Notes under the pieces: generated by a model
Told to the model about the DNA's origin: nothing
Databases searched by the model: none
Seen by the model: only the letters and a program-made list of their open reading frames with translations
Assembly: GCA_963790405.1 (NCBI GenBank)
Contig: CAWBOJ010000006.1
Span: forward strand, 380,858 to 444,857
Direction: 5' to 3'
Length of the DNA stretch: 64,000 nt
Origin: an uncultured Actinomycetota bacterium
GTDB taxonomy: Bacteria; Actinomycetota; Coriobacteriia; Anaerosomatales; JAGXFU01
Position numbers and translations under genes: made by a program
Shown: piece after piece, positions 53,485-57,481 of the stretch
How the letters are laid out: each line of letters opens with the position of its first letter
Numbering within the stretch: position 1 is the first letter of the stretch

Positions 53485-54708
53485 CTAGCCAAGTTCGCGA
53501 GCTGTCGCTTTCAGTTGCTTGGCGAGCAGACCTGCGACTCTGGGGTTGTCGCCCCAAGCACCGATCGTGACCGTCGAGACGTGTGCTTCGACGCGTGCCT
53601 GCCTGATGGACACCTGCATGTCGATGATGGTCACGGAACTCTCGAACGGGAAGCAGGCGGGGCATACCAGCACGCGGCTACATCCGAGTGCTGCGAGGTG
53701 CCGGACCGTCTCGGTGATGTCCGGATTTCTCCATTCCGCGTAGCACAAGCGGACGTTCTGCTGAGGTAAGCCGCGGTCTATCAGGATGGACCGCACGCGA
53801 TTGGCGAACGAGTTCTCTTGAACATCGAAAGAGGTGTGGCTCTTCTGCCAGGCATCGGGCTGTCCATGCAGCGTTAGTGCTACACCCGTGTGCTCCGGGA
53901 CATCTCGAGCCTGCCAGACGAGGTCGGAGACGTGCTCGCACAACTCGGCAGATCCCCAAAGGGGCGGGGTGTAGCTGAGCCGAAGCCCGTGTGACTCAGG
54001 TCTCAAGGAGTCCACCGCAGCCTTGGCGCGATCCATGGCGTAGGACTCACCGACAGCCAGCGTCGCGACGACGATGTTGCGGAAGCCATCCTGCGCTGCC
54101 TGAACAACTACTCGATCTAGAGTGTCGCGGCCGACGCCCGATACGAAACGGACTGCACCGAAGTCCTTGCCGAGCTCAGATTCGACGTTCTCAGACAATG
54201 CTCGTGCTTGACGTGCAGCCGGGCTGGTGCCGCCGAGTGCGCGATACCGTGCCTTCTGCGCGGCATACAGAAATGGTGCGATGCCCAGTGTTGCTTCAGG
54301 CAGACCCGCTGCAGCGAGGCGTTCCAGCTCCTGTGCGATAGCGGATGGCCTGTAGTGCTCCGGTTCGATCTGAGCGACGATGAGCGCCAATGGACCCGAG
54401 ACGGTGTCATCGAACGTGTCGGGCAGTTCGGGGGTGCTGCGTCGGGCGGCAAGGTAGGGGAGCAGTGCTGAGGCGAGCGCGTAGCCACCGCCGACAGAGC
54501 CGACCGAGAGGCCCAGAGCGGCAAGCGTCACGTTTGCCTGGCCGTAGGCGTCTACGACTTCGATGATTCCCCACGCTCCACCGACTATTCCCGCTATGGC
54601 CAAGAAGAGGAGCAGGGGTTCTCGTCCCCGTGATACCACCAGCAGGCCTACGACCGATGTGCCGACCGTTAGCCCACCTATGAAGATGGTGCCCCACTCG
54701 ATTGTCAT
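53485..54708 (-). CDS. Membrane-anchored ferrochelatase/class II chelatase-like protein
   Basis: Three N-terminal TM helices; RYRALGGTSP, LTLHGQP, C-terminal PDITETV...VLVCPACF. Confidence 0.7.
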   Translation of the reverse strand: MTIEWGTIFIGGLTVGTSVVGLLVVSRGREPLLLFLAIAGIVGGAWGIIEVVDAYGQANVTLAALGLSVGSVGGGYALASALLPYLAARRSTPELPDTFDDTVSGPLALIVAQIEPEHYRPSAIAQELERLAAAGLPEATLGIAPFLYAAQKARYRALGGTSPAARQARALSENVESELGKDFGAVRFVSGVGRDTLDRVVVQAAQDGFRNIVVATLAVGESYAMDRAKAAVDSLRPESHGLRLSYTPPLWGSAELCEHVSDLVWQARDVPEHTGVALTLHGQPDAWQKSHTSFDVQENSFANRVRSILIDRGLPQQNVRLCYAEWRNPDITETVRHLAALGCSRVLVCPACFPFESSVTIIDMQVSIRQARVEAHVSTVTIGAWGDNPRVAGLLAKQLKATARELG

Positions 54709-54852: not shown

Positions 54853-55173
54853 ATGAGTACAGCAGTGAAAGACGTATCGACCTCTGAGTTCACTTCGGAG
54901 GTTCTGGACGCAACCGTTCCCGTTGTGGTCGACTTCTGGGCACCGTGGTGCGGTCCGTGTCGTGTGGTAGGTCCCGAAGTCGAGAAACTTGCGGATCGCA
55001 TGAACGACAGCGCTAAGTTCGTGAAGGTGAACGTGGACGACAACCGTGACATCGCAATGAAGTACGGCATCATGAGCATTCCGACTATTGCGAAGTTCGA
55101 GCGAGGAAACATGATCACCCAAGTGGTTGGGGCACGCGGTGCCGATGCGCTAGCCTCGGAACTCGGGCTGTAG
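54853..55173 (+). CDS. trxA: Thioredoxin
   Basis: DFWAPWCGPC, MSIPT; GGAGG RBS. Confidence 0.96.
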   Translation: MSTAVKDVSTSEFTSEVLDATVPVVVDFWAPWCGPCRVVGPEVEKLADRMNDSAKFVKVNVDDNRDIAMKYGIMSIPTIAKFERGNMITQVVGARGADALASELGL

Positions 55174-55183
55174 GCTGGTATCA

Positions 55184-55399
55184 TTGCCTACGTACGAACT
55201 GACTTGCCAGGCTTGTGGTGAGCGCTTCGACCGATTCTTCACCAGGTTGCTTCGCGAAGAGGACAAGGTGTGTCCGGTTTGCGGGTCCACACAGGTGAAG
55301 TGCGGTTTCGGGGGAGGTATCCTTGGCAAGGGAACGAGCGCCGGTGTCGGTGCCGTGCCCGCCGCCTCGTGCGGGACAGGGGGCTTCACTTGAGGCTAG
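55184..55399 (+). CDS. FmdB-family zinc-ribbon protein; possible Sec at TGA 55391 (ends at 55393 if UGA is stop)
   Basis: MPTYE..CQAC..CPVC; ends CGTGGFT-TGA-GGC-TAG with a downstream hairpin. Confidence 0.85.
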
Positions 55400-55433
55400 C
55401 CCGCGTCTGGCCAGACGTCCGAGGGAGTTGTCG

Positions 55434-55808
55434 GTGGACTACGCGTACAAGCGGGTAGGCACTGAGGGATTCGAATCTACGATCGAGGCCGTGGAGCGCT
55501 CTGTGCGCGACCACGGCTTCGTCATACAGCAGTTTCACGATATCAGCGCCCGGTTGGCTTCGAAGGGCTTCCCGATCCGGCCGCTCGTGATCTTCGAGAT
55601 CGCCTTGGCGGACGGTGATTCGGACGAAATGGTCTCGCTACTCATGCCGTGCAGGATCAACGTCTACGAAGAGGGCGACAGTGTCGTCGTCGCTGCGCTT
55701 CGGCCCAGCCTGTTCAAGGCGGTGTTTCCGGAGCACGAGCTCGATGCAGTTGCGCAGAGAGTAGAGGCGAGCGTGATCGATGTCGTAGACAGCGCTGTCA
55801 GCGGGTAG
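55434..55808 (+). CDS. DUF302-family protein
   Basis: HGFVI...DISARLASKG, LLMPCRINVYE, ALRP. Confidence 0.75.
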   Translation: MDYAYKRVGTEGFESTIEAVERSVRDHGFVIQQFHDISARLASKGFPIRPLVIFEIALADGDSDEMVSLLMPCRINVYEEGDSVVVAALRPSLFKAVFPEHELDAVAQRVEASVIDVVDSAVSG

Positions 55809-55853: not shown

Positions 55854-56441
55854 CTACAGGACGCATGCCGAGTATCTCAGGAAGACAGCGATAGCCTCAT
55901 CGACTAGCTCGTCTCGCGTCTGTGCACGGTCATCGATGAGACATTCCTTCATCGAGTGCCCGAGAATGGCCAGTCCAACGTCTCCGATGGTTGAGGTAGC
56001 TCGCGACAGTCCCTTGAGGATAGCGTCGCATTCAGCACCTTCTTCCATCCGTTCCTGGATGTCACGGAGTTCAGCTTCCAGGCCGCCGAGTCGCGATATC
56101 ATCTCCGCGCTGTCTCCCGGAGAGATGCTGCTGGGATCAGGCGTCGACGTCGATAGGTTCCTATACCGGATGAAGACTTCGAATGCTTCCTGGATCACGC
56201 TATCCCGTCCGGTTTCGGCTCCGCCGGCCAGGCATGTCTTCATCGAGTAACCGATGATGCGCATTCCCACCTGCGTTAGCGCCGACTTGGCCGCGAGCAC
56301 TTGCGTCAGAATCGCCTGACAGTCCTTGTCGGAGCCGATCATCGTCTGAAGTCCGCGCACCTGACCCTCGAGCCGTTTGAGGCGGTTCACGATGCGGCGC
56401 CGTTCCGACTCGACTGTTATGGCATCCATGCGCTCGGGCAT
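55854..56441 (-). CDS. Tandem CsoR/CstR-family repressor (two repeats)
   Basis: Repeat 1 NRLKRLEGQVRG..DKDC..SMKTC; repeat 2 SRLGGLEAE..GAEC..SMKEC; GAGGAG RBS. Confidence 0.85.
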   Translation of the reverse strand: MPERMDAITVESERRRIVNRLKRLEGQVRGLQTMIGSDKDCQAILTQVLAAKSALTQVGMRIIGYSMKTCLAGGAETGRDSVIQEAFEVFIRYRNLSTSTPDPSSISPGDSAEMISRLGGLEAELRDIQERMEEGAECDAILKGLSRATSTIGDVGLAILGHSMKECLIDDRAQTRDELVDEAIAVFLRYSACVL

Positions 56442-56493
56442 AGCTTCTCCTCGATGGTGTTGCGATATCATTGTGCGGTACGTCTGTCGAAAA

Positions 56494-56512
56494 TATACCC
56501 CCTGGGGGTATA
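56494..56512. promoter_or_regulatory. CsoR/CstR-type operator between the divergent repressor and CDF genes
   Basis: Perfect palindrome TATACCCCC-T-GGGGGTATA. Confidence 0.88.
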
Positions 56513-56533
56513 ACGTGCAAGCGCGGGGATGGT

Positions 56534-57481
56534 ATGAGCCCAAACACTGAAACGGTATCCGCCTACTCCACTCCGCCGAGGATCAAGCAGATCAGGCGGG
56601 TTCTGTGGGTCGTTCTATTCCTCAACCTCATTGTGGCGATCGCCAAGATGGGTTGGGGCTACTTCTCCGGCTCGGTGGCCATGCAGGCCGACGGGTTCCA
56701 TTCTCTGTTCGACGGAACCTCGAACGTAGTCGGGCTCATCGGCATCGGTATGGCTGCTCGGCCTCCAGACAAGGACCACCCCTACGGTCATGCGAAGTAC
56801 GAGACCTACGCCTCGCTTGCCATCGGGGCGATGCTCGCCTTGGCGGCCTACAACGTGGGAAGCAGTGCCGTTCGGGAGTTGATGGCGGGTGCAGAACCTC
56901 CGCGCGTCGACATGATTTCGTTCGCTGTCATGCTTGGGACGCTCGCAGTCAACTTGACCGTGACTACGTATGAGCGTCGGGTTGGGAAGCGCATTGGCAG
57001 CGAGATCTTGATTGCGGACGCATCCCACACGTTCAGCGACATCTGGGTAAGCCTGGGCGTTATCGTCGGACTGGTCGCCGTCAAACTCGGCTACCCACAA
57101 GCCGACCCGCTCATCGCCGTGCTCGTAGCATTCGCCATCGCTTTCACGGCGTGGCATGTGTTCAAGCAAGCCAACGCGACGCTTTCTGACACGGCACGCA
57201 TCCCGCCGGTTGACGTGTGTGCCCGCGCCCGCGCGGTTGAGGGCGTACTGGGTTGTCATCACGTGCGGACACGCGGTACTGAGGCTGAGGTCTACGTCGA
57301 CCTTCACGTTCAGGTCGATCCGTCTTTGAGCGTCGAGGAGGGTCATCGCATCAGCACCGAGGTGGAGAATGTCGTGTGTGCTGCCTTCGATGCTGCAGTC
57401 GATGTTGTGGTTCATCTCGAACCGTACGATTCCTACGAGGCTTCGAAGACCGCCGAGGAGATCAATGCAGGACTTGCCTAG
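56534..57481 (+). CDS. Cation diffusion facilitator (FieF-like)
   Basis: ADGFHSLFD, PPDKDHPYGHAKYE, ADASHTFSD, VVHLEP. Confidence 0.93.
   Translation: MSPNTETVSAYSTPPRIKQIRRVLWVVLFLNLIVAIAKMGWGYFSGSVAMQADGFHSLFDGTSNVVGLIGIGMAARPPDKDHPYGHAKYETYASLAIGAMLALAAYNVGSSAVRELMAGAEPPRVDMISFAVMLGTLAVNLTVTTYERRVGKRIGSEILIADASHTFSDIWVSLGVIVGLVAVKLGYPQADPLIAVLVAFAIAFTAWHVFKQANATLSDTARIPPVDVCARARAVEGVLGCHHVRTRGTEAEVYVDLHVQVDPSLSVEEGHRISTEVENVVCAAFDAAVDVVVHLEPYDSYEASKTAEEINAGLA

Follow-up and report, generated by a model that had tools for sequence, protein, structure and literature searches.

The question raised by this locus is whether a TGA codon that appears to end a small zinc-ribbon gene is an ordinary stop or the codon for a penultimate selenocysteine (Sec, U). 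The gene lies in a window of 64,000 nucleotides (nt), which is the whole stretch of DNA analysed here (positions 380,858 to 444,857 of contig CAWBOJ010000006.1, assembly GCA_963790405.1) and comes from an uncultured bacterium of the order Anaerosomatales (Actinomycetota, Coriobacteriia). An earlier note on this DNA, made from the sequence without database searches, had proposed that the gene is a hidden selenoprotein, its TGA being followed by one glycine codon, a TAG stop and a hairpin resembling a selenocysteine insertion sequence (SECIS). Comparison with related genomes leads us to the same answer: the gene very probably encodes a selenoprotein in which the TGA is read as Sec and which ends one residue later. 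The features in question are as follows, in window coordinates.

55184..55399, + strand: coding sequence (CDS) of the putative FmdB-family zinc-ribbon selenoprotein, 71 residues, TTG start, proposed true stop TAG at 55397-55399
55391..55393, + strand: in-frame TGA, proposed Sec codon, residue 70, at the same aligned place in 40/40 orthologues
55403..55418, + strand: SECIS-like hairpin with a 6-bp stem and the loop GGCC, 3' of the TAG, in the spacer before a DUF302 gene

Read to its first TGA, the open reading frame (ORF) spans 55184-55393 and has 69 codons from the TTG start. The 69-amino acid product had been described as a zinc-ribbon protein beside a thioredoxin, and profile searches agree: it matches PF09723 (Zn_ribbon_8/FmdB; E 3.5e-11, 43.4 bits against a cut-off of 34.4) and TIGR02605 (33.7 bits against a cut-off of 31.3), and a PF00085 gene (E 6.8e-29) lies directly upstream. 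With two CxxC knuckles in its N-terminal ~40 residues and scores above both curated cut-offs, it belongs to the FmdB family. The 3' end of the gene is TGC GGG ACA GGG GGC TTC ACT TGA GGC TAG, with GGC at 55394-55396, and if the TGA is read as U the C-terminus becomes ...SCGTGGFTUG, i.e. Cys-x6-Sec-Gly (C63-x6-U70-G71). The protein would thus consist of the knuckle cysteines C8, C11, C30 and C33, a Gly-rich linker and the C63/U70/G71 tail. AlphaFold predicts a three-stranded ribbon with its strands within residues 3-41; residues 1-41 are modelled confidently (predicted local distance difference test score 84-88), and residues 44-71 have no confident structure, which fits a flexible tail. Beyond the TAG, three bases (CCC) lead into the hairpin, composed of the stem arms GCGTCT (55403-55408) and AGACGT (55413-55418) around the loop GGCC (55409-55412). 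The order TGA, GGC, TAG and hairpin given in the earlier note is correct in all bases and coordinates, as is its count of 15 bases between the A of the TGA and the first loop G, which places the loop start 18 nt after the U.

The genome from which the window derives (G000; 2.49 Mb in 8 contigs, 85% completeness) was found to contain all four sel genes that had been named as a prerequisite: selA (552 bits), selB (329 bits), selD (364 bits) and selC, the gene for tRNA-Sec (72 bits), which ARAGORN calls tRNA-SeC with the anticodon tca (UCA). They cluster within ~11 kb on contig C3 (683-694 kb). The selD gene (G000:C3:683229-684143, locus L002) holds one in-frame TGA and is itself a selenoprotein (…TKAG-U-AAKWG…). 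A second FmdB paralogue in the same genome (G000:C8:126694-126813, locus L184) combines the classical GTGFHTTDYRK segment with a tail that contains Cys (…CPSKSDSSACKSCPASSE), with no short in-frame extension past its TGA stop. Taken beside the window gene, this paralogue indicates that the genome carries both the putative Sec-tail form and the plain form of FmdB.

Conservation of the TGA was examined in 61 genomes of the order, i.e. the window genome and 60 relatives, with homologues accepted at E <= 1.8e-14. A strong zinc-ribbon homologue is present in 40 of the 61, the window's own included, and all 40 genes were inspected. Without exception they end in F-x-TGA, exactly one codon and a stop. 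The intervening codon is GGN in 22 genes, GCN in 16, AGG in one and ACG in one; third positions are free, which is what selection to encode a small residue would produce. TGA serves as the second stop in 23 genes and TAG in 17. The orthologues are 46-74% identical to the window protein, and in their alignment C8, C11, C30, C33, C63 and position 70 are invariant and F68 is kept in at least 90%. An in-frame UGA therefore stands at one aligned position in 40/40 sequences, as it does in SelB/SECIS-dependent selenoproteins, and none of the 40 has a Cys form. Free use of TAA or TAG at this place, which the earlier note had offered as grounds for abandoning the idea, does not occur in the order; mixed stops were seen in homologues from families without selA.

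The hairpins that follow the orthologues have stems of 5-9 bp, and their sequences differ while the pairing is kept. Their loops are GGUC (13 genes), GUC, GUG, GUA, GUU or CGUGA; the loop GGUC is that of the Escherichia coli fdhF SECIS, in which G likewise stands at the loop start. A greedy search places the loop start 17-25 nt after the U in 38/40 genes, the other two, including the window locus, having been given a different stem. When the 40 sequences are aligned by MAFFT, an 8-bp helix pairs in 65.1% of cells compared with 56.7% after shuffling (0/500 shuffles reach the observed value). The covariation score of this helix is 0.291, compared with 0.176 in shuffles, and the value drops if the 3' arm is shifted by 1-3 columns. 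RNAalifold returned no consensus structure from the same alignment because the loop lengths differ and put the arms out of register, and no Rfam family matches the hairpin.

One TGA is present in the selD of nearly all relatives in the clade, which allowed the hairpin to be set beside the SECIS of a known selenoprotein, a comparison that had been proposed in the earlier note. The selD SECIS could be parsed in 26/31 loci (the window genome and 25 others) and in 26/26 the distance from the U to its loop start is 19 or 20 nt, with a stem in which (U)GGGGUCC pairs with GGACCUC(A) and loops of GGC, GGA, GUC or CGGGC; in the window genome's own selD SECIS the loop is GGC and this distance is 20 nt. 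The zinc-ribbon hairpins share with these elements the distance from the U and the apical pattern ..GUCC-GGNC-GGAC.., and the GGCC loop at the window locus is closest to the GGC of its own selD, so that the resemblance holds in both position and apical sequence. Unlike the selD elements, the zinc-ribbon hairpin lies outside the CDS and is free of codon constraint. The likeness is one of geometry and apical sequence, not of model-based identity.

Tails of the same kind extend well beyond the order. When the best representatives of 1.84 billion proteins were searched with a profile, 1062 matched at E <= 0.001, and among the best 150 of these, 37 end in C-x(2-9)-F-[GSTRA] at the called C-terminus, exactly where a TGA would cut. 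Relatives are named 'zinc ribbon domain-containing protein' or 'putative FmdB family regulatory protein' in public records. A word-indexed protein search found 7 relatives only, all ending at the TGA. A search for related loci found 21 with a 6-row alignment and none with the single window protein. That a two-residue extension would be missed by standard annotation was thus a sound expectation, as all public gene calls end at the TGA and lose the Sec-Gly. A sample of 401 genomes from the phylum yielded 69 with an FmdB-like match, of which the best match was inspected in 67, two being unparsed. The residues after the U in this sample are G, A, GF (...G-U-G-F-stop), GG (...F-S-U-G-G), GL (...F-G-U-G-L), SH, AG or C, and a large group ends in ...C-x5-U-[S/R/K]-P-W-stop, in which P-W-stop is conserved in frame past the TGA and the codons vary. 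Metagenome-assembled genomes (MAGs) labelled Peptococcaceae and Oscillospiraceae have the tails ...G-F-G-U-G-C(-N) and U-A-S-C. A Cys stands 4-8 residues before the U, or two after it, in nearly all tail variants.

A tail was classed as Sec-type where the TGA is followed by 1-3 codons and then a stop, except that three loci with TGA, one codon and a stop (L133, L134 and L153) were assigned by hand to the other tails as Cys-rich or PP-type. This gave 38 Sec-type tails in distant lineages in addition to the 40 of the order. Hairpins were scored by a fixed rule (a stem of 5 bp or longer, a 3-6 nt loop with G in the first two positions, and 14-28 nt from the U to the loop start) and compared with two control sets, with the following counts.

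Sec-type tails, all: hairpin in 73/78
Sec-type tails, in the order: hairpin in 39/40
Sec-type tails, outside the order: hairpin in 34/38
Other FmdB tails: hairpin in 8/31
TGA-ended long ORFs of the window genome: hairpin in 235/1010

A hairpin 3' of the UGA, with a G-initiated loop at SECIS distance (17-25 nt in the order, compared with 19-20 nt in selD), therefore accompanies the great majority of Sec-type tails. These tails also track selA, which was found in 267/401 genomes of the phylum sample, being present in 38/39 genomes with a Sec-type tail and in 12/28 genomes with other tails. Two families without selA (0/28 and 0/7 genomes) have only Cys-rich tails, e.g. ...SCPTGTCPFN and ...GCCGGACGGH, which end in TAA, TAG or TGA and mostly have no hairpin. 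Inside the order the correlation is uninformative, 53/61 genomes having selA.

Comparison across these genomes indicates that ribosomes do not terminate at the UGA and that selection maintains a hairpin at SECIS distance jointly with the predicted read-through. Given read-through, a conserved hairpin and the presence of the sel genes, SelB-dependent insertion of Sec is the only mechanism that fits. The UGA at 55391-55393 would be decoded by Sec-tRNA(Sec) delivered by SelB, and SelB would be recruited by the hairpin at 55403-55418, beyond the true TAG stop. C63 and U70 would then act as a pair, most likely by forming a selenenylsulfide, which could be reduced by the co-transcribed thioredoxin, and the protein may serve, under the control of a CsoR-family regulator, in the response to thiol, persulfide or metal stress. 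The explanation as a whole, comprising Sec decoding, a hairpin past the stop and a tail with Cys and Sec, we consider highly probable. Its last steps draw on the neighbouring genes, which are listed below.

53485..54708, - strand: CbiX/ferrochelatase-like chelatase with an N-terminal membrane part, divergent from the thioredoxin gene (PF00762 E 8.8e-15; PF01903)
54853..55173, + strand: thioredoxin gene (WCGPC; PF00085, E as above; TIGR01068 110.7 bits against a cut-off of 96.8)
55434..55808, + strand: DUF302 gene, GTG start 35 nt past the TAG (PF03625 25.1 bits against a cut-off of 23)
55854..56543, - strand: two-domain CsoR/RcnR-family (Trns_repr_metal) regulator, convergent with the operon (PF02583 E 3.4e-31, two stretches)
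56471..57481, + strand: cation diffusion facilitator (CDF) metal efflux transporter, start codon uncertain (TIGR01297 227 bits)

The thioredoxin gene ends 10 nt before the zinc-ribbon start, and the DUF302 gene is probably co-transcribed with the zinc-ribbon gene. This arrangement is well kept in the 40 orthologous loci, with a thioredoxin upstream in 34, a DUF302 gene downstream in 34, CsoR-like and chelatase-like genes in all 40 and a CDF transporter in 35, the last count being limited by locus length. Outside the order, thioredoxin adjoins 20/31 distant loci. Pfam matches near the distant Sec-tail genes include thioredoxin, a thioredoxin reductase-like flavoprotein, flavin reductase and CsoR-like regulators, and also rhodanese with DUF302, a TlpA/DsbD/CcmH set and an extracytoplasmic function (ECF) sigma factor. 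The group with xPW tails has no such thiol, sulfur or metal neighbours. The regulator at 55854-56543 (- strand) is a tandem of two Trns_repr_metal domains in a single 229-residue protein, and neither domain has a His four residues before its second Cys (…GYSMKTC…, …GHSMKEC…). If the CsoR motif is as we take it to be, the missing His argues against a classical Cu(I)-CsoR site and points to a two-Cys, CstR-like sensor.

Several observations weigh against reading the TGA as Sec. At the single locus, the folding energy of -11.7 kcal/mol for the 42 nt that follow the TGA is unremarkable (z = 0.41; 134/200 shuffles are at least as stable), and the window loop GGCC differs from the GGUC of most relatives. 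The window hairpin alone is not above chance; only the comparative data lift the feature far above it. A covariance model (R1) built on the 40 order hairpins found no selD SECIS at E <= 1 among the 31 selD loci, its two weak matches falling elsewhere, and matched only L150 among 67 distant loci. We attribute this to an element too short and variable for such a model, which is why the fixed hairpin rule with matched controls was used. The usual hallmark of a Sec site, a homologue with Cys in its place, is absent, there being no Cys at the Sec position in the best 150 of the 1062 representatives; other FmdB proteins show only Cys-rich tails that cannot be aligned. Counting L133, L134 and L153 as Sec-type lowers the agreement with hairpin to 74/81 and with selA to 38/42, and the genomes are interrelated, so that counts and Fisher values overstate independence. 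Two genomes keep the tail with doubtful Sec machinery. G195, at 97% completeness, carries a U-G-F tail, but neither selA nor selB was found in it and its tRNA-Sec match is borderline (47.3 bits). In G019, an 80% complete genome of the same order, TGA-GGC-TAG and the hairpin are kept at the FmdB locus (L059) despite damaged sel genes (C7:85516-88395), selA having 2 and selD 6 in-frame stops beside an intact tRNA-Sec (75 bits). Both exceptions could reflect assembly problems or recent decay of the Sec system.

Several of these points could be accommodated if the TGA were an ordinary stop, the protein ended in ...GGFT, the second stop were a tandem back-up and the hairpin, placed before the DUF302 gene, had a role in mRNA stability, attenuation or coupling. 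The modest folding energy, the lack of a Cys-for-Sec orthologue in the best 150 of 1062 matches, the tails of G019 and G195 and the public gene calls, all of which end at the TGA, agree with that explanation, as do the hairpins found by chance: in the window genome, 110/1010 TGA-ended long ORFs are followed by a comparable hairpin, rising to 235/1010 (23%) with a wider window. It accounts poorly for the conservation of the tail. Although TGA is the commonest stop of the window genome, it ends only 1010/1846 long ORFs (55%), as against 40/40 orthologues, and a stop two codons further on, again found in 40/40, follows 18/1010 TGA-ended long ORFs (1.8%). The codon between the two stops varies only at synonymous or small-residue positions, other lineages conserve two or three in-frame residues past the TGA (GF, xPW), and the tails track selA across the phylum. 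The hairpin also persists in the 6 loci without a DUF302 gene, which assigns it to the zinc-ribbon gene rather than to the beginning of the gene downstream, and no run of T follows it. We accordingly regard an ordinary stop as quite improbable. Read-through by other means is less credible still. Nothing specific to this site favours it, although UGA read-through by Trp-tRNA or Cys-tRNA is known in general; the TGA might be read as a standard amino acid under a changed code or by SECIS-independent, near-cognate read-through. A changed code is opposed by the 1010 long ORFs that end in TGA and by selD and the sel genes, which behave as in ordinary Sec users, and near-cognate read-through by the conservation of a dedicated hairpin at SECIS distance; together we consider them very improbable.

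A closer contest concerns what an inserted Sec would do. Rather than forming a redox couple, the Cys/Sec tail could be a ligand for soft metals (Cu, Zn, Ni, Co, Hg) or a carrier of persulfide or selenium, in which case the protein would work with the CsoR-family regulator and the CDF exporter as a chaperone, a buffer or a sensor partner. The constant company of the CsoR-family and chelatase-like genes in the order (40/40 loci each) and of the CDF transporter (35/40) speaks for such a role, although within-order synteny may simply be inherited. The Cys/His-rich tails of FmdB relatives without Sec (GCCGGACGGH) resemble metal sites; among distant loci, L137 has a rhodanese, DUF302 and a CsoR-like gene, and L078 has an ArsP_2 exporter. 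The CsoR-like domains themselves lack the His mentioned above, and the most widely recurring neighbour across lineages is thioredoxin. The Sec of several near-C-terminal families may be a metal ligand according to the portion of a 2026 review that bears on them (PMC13188914). A role as metal or persulfide ligand appears possible, though the less likely of the two. A thioredoxin link of the Cys/Sec tail is plausible from the gene neighbourhood, and is strengthened by the adjoining thioredoxin genes in several distant lineages and by a tail that is probably flexible in the model. We therefore favour a selenenylsulfide/selenol couple serviced by thioredoxin, while putting its chances at about even.

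Selenoproteins in which Sec is close to the C-terminus and the SECIS follows the stop are a known kind in bacteria, and the window protein, so read, is one of this kind and far more widespread than a single locus. The closest precedent by fold is an FmdB-family 'putative regulatory protein' reported as a selenoprotein in the Global Ocean Sampling (GOS) metagenome, with 2 sequences, 807 Cys homologues and a CxxU motif (Zhang and Gladyshev, 2008; PMC2398784), which was listed again with the motif U/CxxU in 2022 (PMC9312934) and UxxU in 2026 (PMC13188914). In the passages of these papers that describe it, the GOS protein shares with ours the COG2331/TIGR02605 zinc ribbon, a UGA-encoded Sec and a predicted bacterial SECIS, and differs in that Sec replaces a knuckle Cys. 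In the window protein C8, C11, C30 and C33 are all invariant Cys, the proposed Sec is residue 70, penultimate in the tail, the SECIS would lie past the true stop and no Cys-for-Sec homologue was found among the matches inspected. By position of the Sec, the nearest counterparts are the near-C-terminal families tabulated in the 2026 review, namely KCU-star (NF033934), UXX-star 1 and 2 (NF041114, NF041211) and SaoC (Cys-Sec-COOH) (PMC13188914). According to that table, they likewise have Sec 0-2 residues from the C-terminus, which forces the SECIS beyond the real stop and leads gene callers to cut the protein short. The folds differ, NF041211 (gluta_UXX_star_2) being glutaredoxin-like by its model name, with the UXX-star families compared by table entry only (PMC13188914). 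Consistent with this, 19 Sec-tail FmdB proteins scanned against NCBIfam release 20 (one at E <= 0.01, six at E <= 1 and 12 at E <= 0.001) gave no match to a selenoprotein model, NF041114, NF041211, NF041212 and NF033934 included; the sole touch in the scan of six at E <= 1 was NF041197, at 12.5 bits. In the window genome NF041211 matches only other loci, below its cut-off.

The tail also invites comparison with mammalian thioredoxin reductase, which ends in Gly-Cys-Sec-Gly and whose SECIS is of the eukaryotic type in the 3' untranslated region. Common to both would be a penultimate Sec followed by Gly-COOH on a flexible tail, with a nearby Cys available for a selenenylsulfide within the thioredoxin system. 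The mammalian Cys and Sec are adjacent and carried on a large flavoenzyme, whereas here the Cys lies 5-7 residues upstream and the carrier is a 40-residue zinc ribbon. There is neither a vicinal Cys-Sec pair nor a flavoprotein domain of the pyridine nucleotide-disulfide oxidoreductase type in the window protein, and only the Sec-Gly-COOH ending would be common; towards thioredoxin, the protein would act as substrate or partner rather than as reductase.

Taken together, the variant tails (U-G/A, U-GF, U-xPW, U-C and U-GC(N)) lead us to propose, with moderate confidence, that FmdB zinc ribbons with C-terminal Sec tails form a large selenoprotein family found in several deep lineages of Actinomycetota and in MAGs labelled Firmicutes, Thermoleophilia and CSSED10-310. 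Its members would be truncated in every public gene call, would always have the SECIS past the real stop, apparently have no Cys-form orthologues, and are repeatedly wired to thioredoxin and to CsoR/CstR-type regulators. We found no description of a tail-Sec FmdB protein in the main texts searched, a set without Haft and Tolstoy (2025) and Deng et al. (2026, Cell Rep), either of which could describe the family. A Sec one to three residues from the end escapes gene callers and also the usual selenoprotein searches, which depend on conserved sequence flanking the UGA and on a Cys homologue. If true, the proposal would give a first functional handle on the enigmatic FmdB family, as a selenol/thiol relay or a persulfide/metal sensor. 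Its confirmation would add one family to the selenoproteomes of these anaerobic Actinomycetota and their relatives and give the function-unknown FmdB family a testable role beside thioredoxin and CsoR-type sensors. The 16-nt hairpin after the stop would then be a natural minimal example of bacterial C-terminal Sec placement, useful for selenoprotein engineering.

A few minor observations were made at distant loci. In one family of the phylum sample (L119, L139 and L150), the Sec-tail FmdB and thioredoxin genes adjoin a divergently oriented ECF sigma factor gene accompanied by a small ORF that lacks annotation, an arrangement that we take to be reminiscent of thiol-stress regulons of the SigR/SigH type. 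In a MAG labelled Oscillospiraceae, the ArsP_2 gene beside the Sec-tail FmdB gene (a '10TM heavy-metal exporter'; L078:1904-3117, - strand) is split into two ORFs by a stop, which may be the Sec codon of an SO_0444-type Cu/Zn efflux selenoprotein, a type that appears among the families listed in the 2026 review (PMC13188914). Two apparent thioredoxin-FmdB fusions in public gene calls (P0016 and P0037, 176 residues) have garbled middles that look out of frame, and we rejected them as probably frameshifted assemblies of adjacent trx and FmdB genes and not real fusions. At L168 (1252-1477, - strand), the covariance model R1 matched three identical 24-nt GC-rich sites with 101 nt spacing upstream of an FmdB gene, which look like a short tandem or array-like repeat.

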